A stretch of 64,000 nucleotides of DNA from Trueperaceae bacterium (lineage in GTDB: Bacteria; Deinococcota; Deinococci; Deinococcales; Trueperaceae). Position 1 is the stretch's first letter. Each line of letters starts with the position of its first letter. Positions 3,625 to 39,629 of this stretch are shown here, piece by piece. The stretch spans positions 1,184,001 to 1,248,000 of the forward strand of contig JAXHLW010000013.1 of assembly GCA_034521815.1 (NCBI GenBank), given 5' to 3'. Below the pieces are notes generated by a model. The model was given only the letters and a program-made list of their open reading frames with translations, ran no database searches and was not told the DNA's origin. Both the position numbers and the translations under genes were made by a program.

Positions 3625-4806
3625 ATGTGTCCTCGCCGATTCCTTCTCGTCGTAGCCACGATCCTCGCATCGGGGGCGGTCGCTGAGAGCGTGACGGTCC
3701 GCCCAGGCGACACGTTATGGGCGATCGCTCAACGCAACGGAACGACCGTGGACGCGCTCATGGCCGCGAACGGCCTCTCCCGCCCGGACCTTCGTCCGGG
3801 CGAAACGTTGGCGCTTCCCGGCGACGACGCGCCGGCACCGGAGATCTGGACCGTCTCCGCGGGCGACACGCTCTACGACATCGCCACGGCGACCGGCACC
3901 AGCGTCGACGAGCTCGTGGCGTGGAACGCTCTGAACGGTGCCACCATCCGTCCTGGGCAGGAGCTGCGCCTCGGCCCCTCCAACGCCGCAGCCGAGCTCC
4001 GACCGCTCACGGTCGAGGTGCGCCCCGGCGACAGCCTGTGGCGAATCGCCCGAAGCCACGACACGACGCCGGCCGCCATCGCGACGGCGAACGGCATCGA
4101 CGCAAGCGCGGTCCTTCAGCCCGGGGACCGGCTGGTCGTGCCGGGGGTGTACGCCCAGGCCGACTCGCCCAGCGACCAGGGCGGGTTCGCCGCTCCCACC
4201 ATCACCGTGGACCCAGGCGACACGCTCTGGGAGATCGCGCGGCGCTACGACACGACCGTGGCCGCGTTGATGGAGGCGAACGCGTTGAGCGATCCGGCGC
4301 TCCAGGCCGGCCAAGAGCTCGAGATCATCGGCGCCGATGGCATCGCCACGTCGGCATCGCCGACCGCGACGATCCCCCGGCCCGACCCGAGTCCGTCGCA
4401 GGCGGCCCCGACGACCATGATCTGGCCGCTTCGGGGACCGGTCACGTCGACGTTCGGCTGGCGCGCGCTCCGCATCGGTGGATCGAACATGCATTACGGC
4501 GTCGACATCGACGGGGTGACGGGCGACCCGATCGTCGCCGCGTCCGGCGGCACCGTGACGTACGCGGCGTGGATGGGCGGCTTCGGAAAGCTCGTGATCA
4601 TCGAGCAGGGCGACACCGAGTACTACTACGCGCACGCGTCGGAGATCCTCGTGCGCGAGGGGCAACAGGTCGAGACCGGTCAGCTGATCGCGCGGGTCGG
4701 GACGACCGGCCGCGTCACCGGATCGCACCTCCACTTCGAAATCCGTGTCGACGGCACACCGGTGGATCCGACGCCCATGCTCGCGACGCGGGCCGGCGTT
4801 CGCTGA
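3625..4806 (+). CDS. Secreted 4xLysM + M23 peptidoglycan endopeptidase
   Basis: Signal peptide; four LysM repeats (GDTLW/GDTLY/GDSLW/GDTLW); M23 zinc motifs HYGVD and HLHFE. Confidence 0.93.
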   Translation: MCPRRFLLVVATILASGAVAESVTVRPGDTLWAIAQRNGTTVDALMAANGLSRPDLRPGETLALPGDDAPAPEIWTVSAGDTLYDIATATGTSVDELVAWNALNGATIRPGQELRLGPSNAAAELRPLTVEVRPGDSLWRIARSHDTTPAAIATANGIDASAVLQPGDRLVVPGVYAQADSPSDQGGFAAPTITVDPGDTLWEIARRYDTTVAALMEANALSDPALQAGQELEIIGADGIATSASPTATIPRPDPSPSQAAPTTMIWPLRGPVTSTFGWRALRIGGSNMHYGVDIDGVTGDPIVAASGGTVTYAAWMGGFGKLVIIEQGDTEYYYAHASEILVREGQQVETGQLIARVGTTGRVTGSHLHFEIRVDGTPVDPTPMLATRAGVR

Positions 4807-4818
4807 CCGGGCGACTTC

Positions 4819-5595
4819 GTGCGCATCGTCGTCATCGGAGATCTCCATACCCAAGAGGCCAAGCTCTGGCGGATGATGGACGAGGCGGGCTTACGAGCGC
4901 CCGACGGCGGCCCGGCCGACGACCTGCTCGAAGGACGGCTCAAGCTGGTCCTTCTCGGCGACCTGGTCCACGCGAAGTCACGCGAGCAGTACGCGTTTCT
5001 CGCCGGGGTGGAAACGTACGACGAGTTCGATCCGAGCCACCTCCGCCGCGCCGAGCGTAGTCAGGAGACGTTCCTACGGCGCGTCGCGGCCTTCCTCGCG
5101 CCCGTCCCCGACGGCATCGCGACGATCCTGCTGGGCAACCACGACTACAACGCCGTTTCGCGCACGCAAGGTCCGCTTCGAAGCGACGACGTGAGTCACC
5201 TCGAGTGGAAGCCCGGGTACGGCAGCGAGCTGCCGGAGGACCTGGCCGCCTGGATCGCCTCCTGGCCCCGTGAGATCGTGGTGGACGGCGTGCACTTCGC
5301 TCACGTCGGACCGAAGCCGGAGCACAACGTGTACGACACGTCGTTCTACCTCGAGAACCGTCGACGCTGGATCTACGACGACGTCGACGTGCTCGAGGGA
5401 ACGCCCTACCGCCTAGGCGTCTACGGACATACGCCGGTGCGTGGTGGATTGAATCTAGCCTCGCAAGGCCGCGCTCTGCTCCTCGACGGCAACGGCCACC
5501 AGGACGAGTACGTCTGGTGCGAGCTCGATACCGGCGCGGAAGGGATCCGCGTGCAGCTGCGCGGCCTGGTGTTCGACGAGACGCTGCCCAGCTGA
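4819..5595 (+). CDS. Calcineurin-like metallophosphoesterase
   Basis: GDLH, LGDLV, GNHD, H and GHT motifs in canonical order. Confidence 0.85.
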   Translation: MRIVVIGDLHTQEAKLWRMMDEAGLRAPDGGPADDLLEGRLKLVLLGDLVHAKSREQYAFLAGVETYDEFDPSHLRRAERSQETFLRRVAAFLAPVPDGIATILLGNHDYNAVSRTQGPLRSDDVSHLEWKPGYGSELPEDLAAWIASWPREIVVDGVHFAHVGPKPEHNVYDTSFYLENRRRWIYDDVDVLEGTPYRLGVYGHTPVRGGLNLASQGRALLLDGNGHQDEYVWCELDTGAEGIRVQLRGLVFDETLPS

Positions 5596-5604
5596 CAGTC
5601 GACC

Positions 5605-7512
5605 TCAACGCAGCTCGACCGTCGCACCTTGCGGCACGAACGCCGCCCAGGTCACCAGCGCCTCGAGCGAGACGACGTTCCCGTCACCATCGGTGAACCG
5701 AAGCCCCCCGTCGACGCTCCAGCTCCCCTCCATCACGGCGCCCCGCCAGAGCAGCAGCGCCTCTCCGCCGCTCACCGGAATGTACAGACGACCAGCCGCG
5801 TCGTTCGGGATCGCGCGTGACGCGACGCGGGCGATCAGCACCGCTTCGACCTGCACCGCCGTGTCCGACGCCGACACGGCGTCTTCTCCGTTCCGGATCC
5901 AGCGGTAGCGGTCCTGGGCGTCCACGTACCTGAACCCGGAGTCGTACGCGCCGCTCCAGTCGATCGCGACGCCGCCCGCCCGCGGCACCTCCTCGGCCGG
6001 CGGCACCGGGCGGAATCCGGTCAGCAGCCGCTGCGCGTCGATGTTCATCGTCCGGATGGCGGCCCGAAGGGCCGAGCCTGCGCTGTACAGATCGTACGGG
6101 GCCGAGCGATCGGCCGCACGCTCGAACAGGTCGCCACGCCGGTACGAGTTCAGCGACGGCGCCATGCCCTGCTCGAGCGCGATGAGCGCGCTGGGCGACC
6201 CGCCGTCGTGCACGACGACGGCGTCGGCCCTGGCCGCGACTTCGACGAAGTAGTCGCGCGCGCTCCGGACCGGACCCACGCGAGCCGGCTCGCCCGCGTC
6301 GAAGAACGCCATCAGGCGGGTCGACCCGCCCTCGACCGGCATCTCGGCGATCCAGCTGGCTTGGGGGAGGCCGGCCTGCGGATAGCCGAGCGCGTTGTCG
6401 ATGATGACGGCGAGCGGCCGTGGACGCGTCTCGCGCAGCGGAGGCGGGGGCGCCGAGAACGAGCCTCCGCCGCCCTCCCGACCGTCCGGCGACGCGGCGC
6501 GACCCAGGGCGCCTGCAGCAGCGTCGTCCGGACCCCCAGGCTGACCGGACGTCGCCGCGTCGCCGCCTGCGGGGGCGTTCTCGTCCGGGACGTTCGCCGC
6601 CGCACCGGGACCGGGGTCGGGCGGTACCACCCGCACGGCCGCCTGGACCGCCGGCGACGGCAGGCGACGCAAGGCGCGGACACCCGCGTCGGGCGCGACA
6701 CCGAGCGCGCGGGCGTCCCCGGCGTCCGCACGGACGGTCGGCGCGACCAGGCTGCGGCCGTCCACCGCGCCCACGACGGCTTCCCTCACCGCGACCGAGC
6801 GCGCCTGAGGAGCGGTGGCGCTGGGCTCGGGGACGGTCAATCCACGTGACGCCAACGCCTGGACGCTGGCCGTGGGCCTGGCGAGGTCACGCGACTCCGC
6901 ACGGACCTCGGGCGCCGAACGGGACAGTGCGACGGCGCCTCCGGCGGGCCGTGCCGATGGCGATGGGATGGGCAGCGTCTCGGGCAACGGCCTGGGAGCG
7001 ATCTCGGGGCTCTCGATCTCCGGCACCGCCACGGTCACGTCGGGCGCCGGCGAGGGCAGGGTCGCTTCCGGAGGGCGCACGTTGGGGGTCGGGACGTCGA
7101 CCGGCGTGGTGGCGACGGGCGGCTCGGGCGTCTCGGGCTCGGCGACGTCCTCCTGCTCCGGTCGCGGCGGAGCGGGAGGCTCGGCCTCCGTCGTCGGCTC
7201 GGAGACGGGCTCGCCCCCGGTCGGCTCGTCGACCTGCGGCGTCCCCGGCACGGGCCTGCCCGCGACGTCGGCGGCGACCTCCGGCGCCGGGGCGTCGGCG
7301 GCCGGAGCGTCGTCCGCGGCAGCGGGCATCTCCACATCGGCCTCGGCGGGCGTGCCCAGGTCGATCACGAGGAACGACTCCTGCGGCTCCCTGTCGGGCA
7401 GATCCACGTCGACCCACAGCACGAGAACCAGGACCAGGACCGCATGCACCAACAGCGACAGCGCCGCCGCGCGTCGCTGGTCGGGATCGGCCCAGACCCG
7501 GCGGCGGCTCAT
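5605..7512 (-). CDS. TonB/TolA-like N-terminal anchor + Pro/Ala-rich stalk fused to C-terminal DUF3048 (YerB-like) domain
   Basis: TM helix with SLLVH (SxxxH); long Pro/Glu/Ala-rich linker; C-terminal RPLAVIIDN...PQAGL...EMPVEGGSTRLMA...GPVRSAR.YF...HDGGS matching DUF3048 signatures. Confidence 0.75.
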   Translation of the reverse strand: MSRRRVWADPDQRRAAALSLLVHAVLVLVLVLWVDVDLPDREPQESFLVIDLGTPAEADVEMPAAADDAPAADAPAPEVAADVAGRPVPGTPQVDEPTGGEPVSEPTTEAEPPAPPRPEQEDVAEPETPEPPVATTPVDVPTPNVRPPEATLPSPAPDVTVAVPEIESPEIAPRPLPETLPIPSPSARPAGGAVALSRSAPEVRAESRDLARPTASVQALASRGLTVPEPSATAPQARSVAVREAVVGAVDGRSLVAPTVRADAGDARALGVAPDAGVRALRRLPSPAVQAAVRVVPPDPGPGAAANVPDENAPAGGDAATSGQPGGPDDAAAGALGRAASPDGREGGGGSFSAPPPPLRETRPRPLAVIIDNALGYPQAGLPQASWIAEMPVEGGSTRLMAFFDAGEPARVGPVRSARDYFVEVAARADAVVVHDGGSPSALIALEQGMAPSLNSYRRGDLFERAADRSAPYDLYSAGSALRAAIRTMNIDAQRLLTGFRPVPPAEEVPRAGGVAIDWSGAYDSGFRYVDAQDRYRWIRNGEDAVSASDTAVQVEAVLIARVASRAIPNDAAGRLYIPVSGGEALLLWRGAVMEGSWSVDGGLRFTDGDGNVVSLEALVTWAAFVPQGATVELR

Positions 7513-7515
7513 GGC

Positions 7516-7920
7516 TCAGCCGCCCGCTGCGATCGCCACGCGCGTCGCGCCGGCACGCTTGATCGCGTCCATGACCCGGACGGTCAGCCCGTGCGTGACG
7601 CTCTGATCGGCACGAAGCACGACCACGGCGGACTCCTGGTCACGCAGCAACGCCTGCAACGCAGGAACCAGCGACGACTCGTCGACCTCGGTCCCCGCGA
7701 GGTAGATCCTCTCGGACGCGTCGATCGTGACGGTCGGCAGACTCGTCGACTGCGCCTCCGCCGACGACGCTTGCGGCAGATCGACGGGAAGGCCCGTCTC
7801 GAGCGTGATGAAGGTGGTCGAGACCATGAAGAAGATGATCAGCAGGAACACCACGTCGACCATCGGCGTGAGGTCCAGGATCGGCGACAGCCGGGCACGG
7901 CGCGACCGACGCCCGCGCAT
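7516..7920 (-). CDS. exbD: ExbD/TolR family biopolymer transport protein
   Basis: LTPMVDVVFLLIIFFMV with the essential Asp, VDLP, VVLRAD...VMDAIKRAG; ATG overlaps the exbB stop (TGATG). Confidence 0.92.
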   Translation of the reverse strand: MRGRRSRRARLSPILDLTPMVDVVFLLIIFFMVSTTFITLETGLPVDLPQASSAEAQSTSLPTVTIDASERIYLAGTEVDESSLVPALQALLRDQESAVVVLRADQSVTHGLTVRVMDAIKRAGATRVAIAAGG

Positions 7921-8588
7921 CAGCGCGGCTCCGCGACGTCCTCGGACGGAGCGGCGTCGCCGCGCCCGGTTCCCTCGCGCCGCGTCGCGACCGCTTGAAC
8001 GACCTCGCCCATCAGCTCCTCGCGACGGCGCTCGACCTCGAGCAGGATTCCGTCCACGCGACTCGAGAGCACGTTCTGGCCGATCAGCGCGGGGATCGCG
8101 ACGATCAGGCCGGCCGCGGTCGTGACCAGCGCCTGGCCGATCCCGTCGGCCAACGCCGCCGGATCGCCCGTGCCCTGCTGAGAGATTTCGGCGAAGGCGA
8201 TGATCATCCCTGTCACGGTACCGAGAAGGCCCATCAACGGCGCGATCTGGGCGACGGTCGCCAGCGGACGCAGCCCCCGAGCGAGCTCCTGCTCGAGCTC
8301 GAGGCTGGCCTCCTGGAACGCCGCCTCGACCGCGGAACGCCCGTACGGAAGACGCGTGAGGGCTGCGCCCAGGACGCGCGCGACCGGGCCGCCGTGGGCT
8401 TCGCACGCTGCGAGAGCGGTGTCGAGATCGCGCTCGCGCACCGCCGCGTTGACGCGGCTCATCAGCCGCTCGCTGTCGGTGCGCTCGCGCGACAGCTTGA
8501 TGAACCTCGCCAGGAACACGTAGAGCGCGTAGAGCGATACCGCCACGATCGCAACCAGGACGGGGCCGCCACTCAGGATCAGATCCAT
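7920..8588 (-). CDS. exbB: MotA/TolQ/ExbB proton channel family protein
   Basis: APLMGLLGTVTGMI.AF and GIGQALVTTAAGLIVAIPA; RBS GGAGAGG upstream. Confidence 0.92.
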   Translation of the reverse strand: MDLILSGGPVLVAIVAVSLYALYVFLARFIKLSRERTDSERLMSRVNAAVRERDLDTALAACEAHGGPVARVLGAALTRLPYGRSAVEAAFQEASLELEQELARGLRPLATVAQIAPLMGLLGTVTGMIIAFAEISQQGTGDPAALADGIGQALVTTAAGLIVAIPALIGQNVLSSRVDGILLEVERRREELMGEVVQAVATRREGTGRGDAAPSEDVAEPR

Positions 8589-8646
8589 GCCTCTCCCCTC
8601 ACATAAGGAGCGTACGCGCGACCGGACTGAGCGGCATGAGAGCCGA

Positions 8647-11382
<2,736 letters not shown>

Positions 11383-11392
11383 GGCCGGCATC

Positions 11393-12178
11393 CTACCGCG
11401 GGTCGTCCGCGTCGCCCTCCTCGGTCCATTGGATGCGTCGGATCGTGCGCGCGCGGGCACCCTCGATCTCGATCGCGACGGCGCAGACCGTGGCCGGACC
11501 GTTGGCGGGGCGGAAGCGCTTGGGCGTCTTGCGTGTGAACCGGTGATGCACCTCTTCGAACCCCATGCCGATCGACGACGCCTGCACCCCCGTCATCCCC
11601 ACGTCGGTGATGTACGCCGTTCCCCGCAGGATCGTCTCGTCCGCCGTCTGCACGTGCGTGTGCGTCCCGATGGCCGCCGCCGCCCGACCCGCGGCGTGCC
11701 AACCGAGCACCTTCTTCTCGCTGGTCGCCTCGGCGTGCACGTCGATGATCACCGGATGATCGCTGCCCACACGCTCGAACAGATCGTCCATGGCGCGGAA
11801 CGGATCGTCGAGAGGGTCGATGAACACGCGGCCCATCACCTGCGCGACGGTGATCCTCTCCCCGCCAGGCAGCGTGAACGTAGCGGCGCCCAGACCCGGG
11901 GTTCCGGGCGGGTAGTTCAGCGGACGGATCAGGTGCTGGGTCTCCTCGAGCAGCTCCGCGGTCTCGGCCTGGTCGAAGGTGTGGTTCCCGAGCGTGACGA
12001 CGTCGGCACCGGCGTCCCGGAGCTGCTGGAAGTGCTTGCGCACGATGCCGAAGCCGCCGGCTGCGTTCTCGCCGTTGACGATCGCGAAGTCGTACTCGGC
12101 CCTCTTGGCGTGGAGGAACGCTCGCGCGGCCTTGAGGCCCGGGGTGGCGAAGACGTCGCCGACGAATAGAACGCGCAC
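11393..12178 (-). CDS. YmdB/TIGR00282 family metallophosphoesterase
   Basis: LFVGDV, NGENAAGGFG, TLGNH, RPLNYP, DVHAEATSEK, GTHTHVQTAD, YITDVGMTG. Confidence 0.92.
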   Translation of the reverse strand: MRVLFVGDVFATPGLKAARAFLHAKRAEYDFAIVNGENAAGGFGIVRKHFQQLRDAGADVVTLGNHTFDQAETAELLEETQHLIRPLNYPPGTPGLGAATFTLPGGERITVAQVMGRVFIDPLDDPFRAMDDLFERVGSDHPVIIDVHAEATSEKKVLGWHAAGRAAAAIGTHTHVQTADETILRGTAYITDVGMTGVQASSIGMGFEEVHHRFTRKTPKRFRPANGPATVCAVAIEIEGARARTIRRIQWTEEGDADDPR

Positions 12179-12231
12179 GCTACGAAGCGTACCAGCCGCT
12201 TGCGCCCAGGAGCCGGGTGGTAGCGTCGGGC

Positions 12232-12723
12232 ATGGAACGCTTCGACGCGATCGACCGGCGCATCCTCGCGATCCTCCGCGAGAACGGCCGTGCATCCCAC
12301 GCGTACGTCGCCAAGCAGGTCGGCCTCTCCGCTCCCGCCGTGGGCGAGCGGATCCGCAAGCTCGAGCAGGCCGGTGTCGTGACGGGCTACCGGGCGGTGC
12401 TGGCGCCCGAAGCGCTGGGCCTGCCGATCTGCGCCTTCGTGGCCCTCGCGCCGCGGCCGGGGACGGTGGTCGCCGAGCTGGTCGAGCGGCTGCTGGAGCT
12501 GCCCGAGATCGAAGAGCTCCACTCCGTGGCGGGAACGTACAGCTACTTCGCGAAGGTCCGCGTCGCGAGTCCGGAGAAGCTCGACGAGTTCCTCGACCGG
12601 CTGATGATGATGGAAGGCGTCGAGAGGACCGAGACCACCATGGTGCTACGTACCAGTGCCGAGCGGCCGGTGCCGCTTCCGTTCGACGCCGCCGCCCAGA
12701 GCCCGACGACCGGCTCGTCATGA
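12232..12723 (+). CDS. Lrp/AsnC family transcriptional regulator
   Basis: DAIDRRILAILRENGR HTH start, VGLSAPAVGERIRKLE, C-terminal RAM domain. Confidence 0.93.
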   Translation: MERFDAIDRRILAILRENGRASHAYVAKQVGLSAPAVGERIRKLEQAGVVTGYRAVLAPEALGLPICAFVALAPRPGTVVAELVERLLELPEIEELHSVAGTYSYFAKVRVASPEKLDEFLDRLMMMEGVERTETTMVLRTSAERPVPLPFDAAAQSPTTGSS

Positions 12724-15539: not shown

Positions 15540-15627
15540 TGGTGCCGAGGATGGGACTCGAACCCACACGACCTAAGCGGTCACTAGCCCCTCAAGCTAG
15601 CGCGTCTACCAATTCCGCCACCTCGGC
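15540..15627 (-). tRNA. tRNA-Leu(GAG)
   Basis: Reverse complement GCCGAGGTGGCGGAATTGGTAGACGCG...CTAGC-TTGAGGG-GCTAG, long variable arm, GGTTCGAGTCC, encoded CCA. Confidence 0.97.
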
Positions 15628-39308: not shown

Positions 39309-39385
<77 letters not shown>

Positions 39386-39416
39386 ATGCATCGTGCTCGG
39401 GCCTTGGAATCGGTAG

Positions 39417-39509
39417 TGGCGGAGAGGGAGGGATTCGAACCCTCGATAGAGGTTTTGCCCCTATACTCCCTTAGCAGGGGAGCGCCTTCAGCCGCTCGGC
39501 CACCTCTCC
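39417..39509 (-). tRNA. tRNA-Ser(GCT)
   Basis: GGAGAGGTGGCCGAGCGG...CTCCC-CT-GCT-AA-GGGAG, long variable arm, CCA end. Confidence 0.97.
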
Positions 39510-39539
39510 TGGTTGCCCGACGCCGACCGGACGATCGAG

Positions 39540-39629
39540 TGGCGGAGGGTGAGGGATTCGAACCCCCGGTGGGGCGAGCCCCACAACGGTTTTCAAGACC
39601 GCCGCTTTCGACCGCTCAGCCAACCCTCC
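39540..39629 (-). tRNA. tRNA-Ser(TGA)
   Basis: GGAGGGTTGGCTGAGCGG...GCGGT-CT-TGA-AA-ACCGT, long variable arm, CCA end. Confidence 0.97.

Follow-up and report, generated by a model that had tools for sequence, protein, structure and literature searches.

A TonB-like stalk protein with a DUF3048 head, encoded behind exbB and exbD in Trueperaceae, as a candidate motor-driven force transducer

We analysed 64,000 nucleotides (nt) of the genome of a Trueperaceae bacterium (assembly GCA_034521815.1, contig JAXHLW010000013.1, positions 1,184,001 to 1,248,000; hereafter the window), in which genes for an ExbB-type and an ExbD-type motor subunit were followed directly by a gene for a 635-amino-acid (aa) protein, P0001. 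This third protein began with a TonB-like membrane helix, continued as a long disordered stalk and ended in a DUF3048 head. P0001 is probably a force transducer of the TonB/TolA type with a swapped head, working with the only ExbBD motor of its genome. The three genes formed a head-to-tail run on the minus strand, with the following features in window coordinates:

7920..8588, minus strand: exbB/tolQ-type motor subunit, 222 aa (PF01618, E 9.2e-30)
7516..7920, minus strand: exbD/tolR-type motor subunit, 134 aa (PF02472, E 7.6e-31)
5605..7512, minus strand: TonB-like anchor-stalk protein with a DUF3048 head (P0001), 635 aa
7402..7512, minus strand: Arg-rich cytoplasmic start and single membrane helix of P0001, residues 1-37 (AlphaFold2)
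7444..7458, minus strand: S19-L-L-V-H23, SxxxH (SHLS-type) motif
7348..7389, minus strand: P42-QESFLVIDLGT-P55, strand-prone motif between prolines, candidate D-box (ExbD docking strand)
6448..7347, minus strand: disordered Ala/Pro/Val/Gly/Glu-rich linker, residues 56-355
6043..6426, minus strand: DUF3048 N-terminal domain, residues 363-490 (PF11258, E 2.4e-31, 109.3 bits, cut-off 25)
5647..5964, minus strand: DUF3048 C-terminal domain, residues 517-622 (PF17479, E 1.7e-09, 38.5 bits, cut-off 25)

The stop codon of exbB and the start codon of exbD shared one nucleotide (cgcTGATGcgc, 7922-7918), and the exbD stop codon (TGA, 7518-7516) was followed, after 3 nt, by the ATG of the 635-aa gene at 7512. 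These junction bases agreed with an earlier model-generated reading of the same DNA (the original prediction), which had described three tightly linked minus-strand genes with a TGATG overlap and a 3-nt gap. The 635-aa fusion is a genuine gene and not an assembly artefact. DNA contigs of a separate study tiled 5772-7489 free of gaps, and many genomes encoded homologues of this architecture that were almost equally long, two of 635 aa at 92% and 89% identity being among the 120 matches listed; the fusion is therefore not two genes joined by an indel, a possibility that the original prediction had raised. Contigs from two metatranscriptome libraries spanned the junction of exbD and the third gene (6983-7812 and 7346-7843), and a further metatranscriptome contig (7817-8712) spanned exbB and exbD and reached beyond the exbB start. 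Such contigs, which came from relatives ~93% identical and from libraries that may contain DNA, fall short of proving a single transcript and hint only weakly at co-transcription.

Apart from the two DUF3048 families, a Pfam scan of P0001 returned nothing, and there was no match to TonB_C (PF03544) at E ≤ 0.1, so that the C-terminus is of the DUF3048/YerB type that had been proposed for it. Modelled alone, the head had a predicted local distance difference test (pLDDT) score of 94.5 and superposed on YerB of Bacillus subtilis (2psb) with Z 32.8 and a root-mean-square deviation of 2.5 over 269 residues at 28% identity. The same relationship was recovered by phmmer (E 6.2e-23) and by Foldseek, and the motifs GPVRSAR-YF and VH-G-SP were common to both proteins. 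Fold searches with the head found YerB alone; since the next best matches (Z 3.2) were generic alpha/beta folds, function is not readable from the fold. A search of the ESM Atlas in which DUF3048 families were skipped gave no usable match. The invariant polar residues of the protein, which include N373, E390, E394, R416, S417, R419, H435, D571 and R575, would be compatible with a binding or catalytic site.

At the opposite end of the protein (...RRAAALSLLVHAVLVLVLVLW...), AlphaFold2 with a 34-row alignment placed a confident helix at residues 10-37; over residues 11-30 the pLDDT averaged 87 and 95 by block. The original prediction of one transmembrane helix carrying SLLVH was upheld, S19 and H23 being seen in the sequence and the helix modelled. 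Across the 34 aligned sequences D9, R13, R14, A15 and H23 were invariant. Of the 121 proteins examined (the query and the 120 listed matches), the 117 of full length all carried an SxxxH-type motif: 115 matched (S/T)xxxH in a hydrophobic stretch, and two read SSVLH and SSALH. The other four were fragments without an N-terminus. In the motif that follows the helix, V49 and I50 were at least 90% conserved, and G53 and P55 were invariant in the same alignment. The D-box of Escherichia coli TonB, QPISVTMVTPAD, is a strand between prolines that is captured by the ExbD dimer, as described in the available text of PMC10907165. The P42-P55 motif resembles it in position and pattern, from which we infer a candidate D-box. 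The NCBIfam model tolA_full also matched P0001 weakly over residues 13-121 (E 0.0079, 15.5 bits vs a cut-off of 59.45).

The stalk was disordered in the AlphaFold2 model over residues 52-351, with pLDDT < 50 for most of the stretch. The linker proper (residues 56-355, ~300 residues) comprised 20.7% Ala, 18.3% Pro, 10.7% Val, 8.7% Gly and 8.0% Glu; of the stalk of roughly 330 aa rich in Pro, Glu and Ala that had been proposed, the disordered Ala/Pro-rich character stood but the length did not. In the 34 aligned relatives the linker was 283-439 residues long, and its variable sequence was interrupted by conserved islands at 164-166 (PEI), 316-324 (GGxA...GQ) and 337-344 (GxAxxPxG), which may be docking motifs.

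Both motor subunits exceeded their Pfam cut-offs (PF01618 for ExbB, PF02472 for ExbD), but an equivalog-level assignment to exbB/tolQ or exbD/tolR was not reached. The nearest NCBIfam models were tolQ (E 1.1e-23) and exbB (E 2.7e-21) for ExbB, and tolR and exbD for ExbD, all far under their cut-offs, and tolQ and tolR came ahead of exbB and exbD as the best models for the pair. T124, T156 and T157 of ExbB were invariant in 26/26 aligned sequences, as was the membrane Asp of ExbD in 27/27, in line with the claim that proton-path signatures are kept; we take these positions to be those of the E. coli proton-path residues. In the window genome (13 contigs, 83.5% complete) profile searches returned one MotA_ExbB match, the protein encoded at 7920..8588, and one DUF3048 match. 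TonB_C, Plug, the TonB-dependent transporter barrel and TolB_N were all without a match in this genome (Pal was not searched), which carries to the genome scale the original observation that the window held no TonB-dependent receptor, tolB or pal. PF13103 (TonB_2) gave no match in the window genome, but control genomes were equally silent, which makes this search uninformative. Of the 101 family genomes sampled, two had a TonB_C match and four a Plug match; several of the latter sat on short contigs of fragmented assemblies.

We evaluated the distribution of DUF3048 and MotA_ExbB in a phylum sample of 301 Deinococcota genomes, in which f1 is the window's family and f2 is Deinococcaceae-type. 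The tallies, unchanged when one unpublished genome (G252) was left out, were:

f1: DUF3048 in 100 of 102 genomes, MotA_ExbB in 99 of 102
f4: DUF3048 in 14 of 14, MotA_ExbB in 14 of 14
f2: DUF3048 in 0 of 112, MotA_ExbB in 110 of 112
f3: DUF3048 in 0 of 62, MotA_ExbB in 13 of 62
f5: DUF3048 in 0 of 10, MotA_ExbB in 2 of 10

Names on the P0001 homologues pointed to Trueperaceae and Deinococcales, and DUF3048 was nearly always single-copy in the sample (117 matches in 115 genomes). Linkage was compared for the 94 of these 117 matches for which an ExbB place was among the 150 matches listed (there were 105 further ExbB matches), the other 23 falling outside the comparison; for 82 of the 94, ExbB lay 1233-2299 nt upstream on the same contig and strand. 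We also fetched 26 loci, comprising 22 f1 loci, with a single locus per genus as far as possible, and four f4 loci, and exbB-exbD-DUF3048 was contiguous on one strand in every one of them. With starts picked by rule, 22 loci had a gap of -4 to 35 nt between exbD and the third gene, and the other four had one of 74-280 nt; the SxxxH motif was present in 22/22 f1 loci. Phosphoenolpyruvate (PEP) carboxylase (17 loci), a metallophosphoesterase (12) and a LysM-M23 peptidase (12) were syntenic within f1 only; as the flanks of f1 and f4 differ, the three-gene core is what both families share. A synteny survey had been called for in the original prediction, and the order that it proposed was recovered.

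In the loci read from families without DUF3048, the equivalent slot held another TonB-like gene. We read four loci, two from f2 (L033, L034) and one each from f3 (L035) and f5 (L038), and the gene after exbD was TonB-like in each:

L033:6536-8911, plus strand: TonB-like gene after exbD
L034:6180-8369, minus strand: TonB-like gene after exbD
L035:5716-7454, minus strand: TonB-like gene after exbD
L038:5230-7056, minus strand: TonB-like gene after exbD

The frame of this gene was interrupted in L034 (a frame change) and was also not continuous as read in L035. The helices carried TVAVH, TLALH, SVLLH or SIVLH and were followed by a very long Pro/Ala/Gln-rich linker and a C-terminal domain of ~110 aa with two conserved Cys (C.V.VD.R...VWPD...C.V.Y/F-L/I-K). 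The next gene downstream encoded a secreted protein (226-276 aa) that was conserved, and neither this protein nor the ~110-aa head had a match in Pfam, NCBIfam or PDB sequences. The head is DUF3048 in f1 and f4 and this unannotated domain in Deinococcaceae-type genomes. The chassis of motor, helix and stalk seems constant across Deinococcota with the head differing, which suggests an exchange of heads on an unchanging motor and stalk inside a single phylum.

Beyond the phylum, a search of representative clusters with the head returned at least 4880 at E ≤ 0.001, 2261 at 1e-10 and 64 at 1e-30. Among the best 150 representatives, 98 were shorter than 500 aa, the usual exported form, in keeping with the earlier description of DUF3048 as usually a stand-alone exported protein. 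By a simple rule, 28 of the same 150 had an (S/T)xxxH helix, nearly all of them within the top 45, a Trueperaceae-like clade. Other long forms carried dockerin, TPR, RCC1, ankyrin or PEGA domains. Record titles of stand-alone DUF3048 proteins were mainly from Clostridia, Tissierellia, Actinomycetota, Chloroflexota and Patescibacteria, most of which lack an outer membrane. The clostridial neighbourhood was phoH-7TM_HD-ybeY-dgkA(+PAP2)-DUF3048-cdd-era-recO, with DUF3048 directly after dgkA, which is sometimes fused to PAP2. That of Actinomycetota was GT4-LemA-M48-DUF3048-pdxST, and in six of its loci (L085-L089 and L091) the start of the DUF3048 gene coincided with the stop of the M48 peptidase gene; two further records read L25-DUF3048. 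Stand-alone DUF3048 genes in these other phyla had no common partner, their clusters being unrelated and of housekeeping type.

We postulate that the products of the three genes work as a single machine. Its motor, driven by protons and seated in the cytoplasmic membrane, would consist of ExbB and ExbD in a 5:2 ratio, with the S19xxxH23 membrane helix of P0001 docking on the ExbB ring and the strand at residues 46-54, just outside the membrane, held by the periplasmic dimer of ExbD. The disordered Ala/Pro-rich stalk of ~300 residues would then span the periplasm and wall to a two-domain, YerB-like DUF3048 head in place of TonB_C, and the motor would pull or move whatever the head binds. Helix docking, strand capture, force transmission and the target are all steps that we infer. 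A nutrient gate is a less likely target of the head than a component of the wall or of the envelope in general, given that the family has almost no TonB-dependent receptors and that stand-alone DUF3048 occurs mostly in single-membrane bacteria. The proposal that proton motive force is delivered to a DUF3048 effector, made in the original prediction, gains from the conserved fusion, its place directly behind exbBD, the SxxxH motif in f1, the single ExbB and the near absence of TonB_C and receptors, but loses from the state of the motif in f4; the cell-wall or S-layer remodelling that it suggested as the purpose is conjectural.

Several observations weigh against a TonB-like transducer. In the f4 loci (L039, L040, L063 and L064) the Ser and the His were both absent from the helix (0/4; for example RRAFLLALLFS), and a comparable strand, GYLV(L/V)E(L/F)G (for example GYLVLELGEG), was kept after it. 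Either the contact between helix and ExbB is dispensable or different in f4, or the motif matters less than assumed; since this operon persists there without Ser and His, less weight can rest on SxxxH alone. It had been foreseen that homologues unlinked to exbBD and lacking the SxxxH helix would count against the idea: linkage held, and the motif was kept in f1 but missing from all four f4 loci. The D-box assignment draws all its support from pattern and position, and a complex prediction of two ExbD periplasmic domains with residues 34-75 of P0001 (score 0.16, mark 0.32) favoured neither outcome. No PDB chain of TonB or TolA was matched by P0001, whether phmmer was run with the whole protein or the profile of the 34-row alignment was used. 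Linkage was missing for 12 of the 94 DUF3048 matches compared, ten of them lying apart from ExbB on another contig of a fragmented assembly, often where a contig ends, and two being second copies, in genomes whose first copy was linked. A distinct lineage (P0212, 696 aa; P0252, 493 aa) combined an SLIIH helix, a Lys/Glu-rich linker and DUF3048, and in such an SLIIH-DUF3048 locus (L065:4965-7103, plus strand) there was no exbBD within 5 kb, the genome encoding one ExbB elsewhere and two TonB_C proteins. This unlinked lineage implies a repeated origin or spread of the fusion, which can occur in the same genome as a true TonB. The absences reported for the window genome are not proven, because the assembly is incomplete, and we know of no ligand or activity of DUF3048.

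The helix and stalk could be a mere membrane tether, like a YerB-type lipoprotein anchor, with ExbBD serving another client and the synteny simply inherited. Most DUF3048 proteins are indeed short and exported or lipid-anchored, as the size distribution above indicates, the f4 helix lacks Ser and His, and the SLIIH-DUF3048 gene of L065 is unlinked to exbBD. PEP carboxylase and the other neighbours are likewise syntenic in f1, so synteny on its own is weak evidence. We nevertheless regard a tether as rather unlikely: exbB-exbD-DUF3048 is the only part common to f1 and f4, the Ser-x3-His helix and post-helix strand are conserved far beyond the needs of a tether, no alternative TonB-like client was found for the single motor, and the equivalent slot of the sister families is filled by another TonB-like stalk. 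Nutrient import through an outer-membrane protein other than a classical TonB-dependent receptor, DUF3048 providing the docking domain, would suit a motor and stalk of Ton-system type, and Deinococcota possess an outer membrane; it seems very improbable to us, as stand-alone DUF3048 is found mainly in the lineages listed above, most of them without such a membrane, and a receptor gene was linked to the operon in none of the 26 loci.

Alternatively, the operon might be a Tol-like system for envelope stabilisation or constriction at division, with DUF3048 in the role of TolA domain III. The best NCBIfam models (tolQ, tolR and, at the N-terminus, the weak tolA_full match) point this way, and the transducer gene stands directly after the motor genes, as tolA does, tonB being often unlinked according to the available text of PMC12204202. 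That text also confines Tol-Pal to Gracilicutes, the NCBIfam scores all lie far under equivalog cut-offs, TolB_N was not found in the window genome, and TolA domain III was not matched, all of which makes a Tol-like system improbable; TonB_2 was not matched either, but its profile was silent in controls too. We therefore retain a TonB/TolA-type transducer with a DUF3048 head as our preferred interpretation.

Like TonB, P0001 has an N-terminal Ser-x3-His helix, a strand-prone motif next to it, a long Pro-rich linker and an ExbB/ExbD partner pair. Unlike TonB, it lacks TonB_C, its linker of ~300 residues is Ala-rich as well as Pro-rich, its gene is fixed behind exbD, and no TonB-dependent receptors were found in its genome. 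It shares with TolA the order motor-motor-transducer and the weak tolQ/tolR/tolA_full similarity, but differs in having no TolA domain III match, scores under all equivalog cut-offs, and no TolB_N found in the genome. Motor-driven force transducers with a vWA head, in which an SHLS helix, a motor box, a linker and the head are encoded beside motor genes, are described in the available text of Williams-Jones et al. 2025 (PMC12204202), which gives their function as unknown and places them in Proteobacteria, Planctomycetes, Verrucomicrobia, Bacteroidetes and Rhodothermaeota. The SHLS helix, motor box (a candidate one in P0001), disordered linker, non-TonB globular head and adjacent tolQR-like genes are alike in the two cases, whereas the head of P0001 is DUF3048 without a vWA match (in Pfam, or among further folds at Z ≤ 3.2) and the phylum is Deinococcota. 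Because TonB-like stalks with non-TonB heads are thus already in print, the class is known and the DUF3048 head is a variant of it, not a new category. The main text and one supplement of PMC12204202 do not mention DUF3048, Deinococc, Thermus or YerB, though its other supplements might, and the same terms are not mentioned in the available part of the MotAB survey PMC12505986. YerB, which the head of P0001 matches across both domains, is a putative lipoprotein of 320 residues without stalk or motor; a list of core sporulation genes marks it as dependent on Spo0A (PMC3416734, in the part available). As far as the available literature text extends, yerB was confined to one figure legend and to sporulation gene lists that call it a putative lipoprotein, and DUF3048 was mentioned in passing in two papers. 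Literature on DUF3048, yerB, ExbB/ExbD in Deinococcus, SxxxH with ExbB, and TonB/TolA in Truepera or Deinococcus did not contain this arrangement.

The operon was flanked in the window by the following genes:

8647-11460, minus strand: PEP carboxylase, upstream of exbB
4819-5595, plus strand: metallophosphoesterase, convergent to the 635-aa gene
3625-4806, plus strand: LysM x4-M23 peptidase (wall hydrolase type), near the operon on the opposite strand

A scan for promoters and terminators over 5300-8900 found none. Contigs of three runs omitted 7 nt at 5594, a site that belongs either to the 9 nt separating the convergent stop codons or to the last bases of the phosphoesterase gene. The omission, a strain difference, was the only indel reported near the 635-aa gene and fell outside its open reading frame (ORF). 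Elsewhere in the window, a 442-aa ORF at 11393-12721 (minus strand) had a YmdB-like phosphoesterase domain covering residues 185-430 only, so that it has either a long N-terminal extension or a start called too early. Matches to tRNA genes (Rfam) comprised a cluster of three at 39312-39629 and a single gene at 15543-15627, all on the minus strand.

The role of ExbBD in Deinococcota is unexplained because its usual clients are missing, and the operon names a likely client for one whole family. The arrangement exbB-exbD-DUF3048, kept throughout that family, points to an unstudied energised envelope process, and it extends the non-TonB heads of motor-driven transducers from vWA to a second type. 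For the DUF3048 family and its thousands of representative clusters, a phenotype dependent on proton motive force would provide a concrete assay. More tentatively, and with some doubt, a single ExbBD may drive modular transducers with exchangeable heads throughout Deinococcota, carrying proton-motive energy to the wall or outer envelope, with DUF3048 as a force-operated module that binds or modifies the wall. If that were true, it would give a first functional handle on DUF3048, and with it on thousands of proteins including the sporulation-linked YerB.

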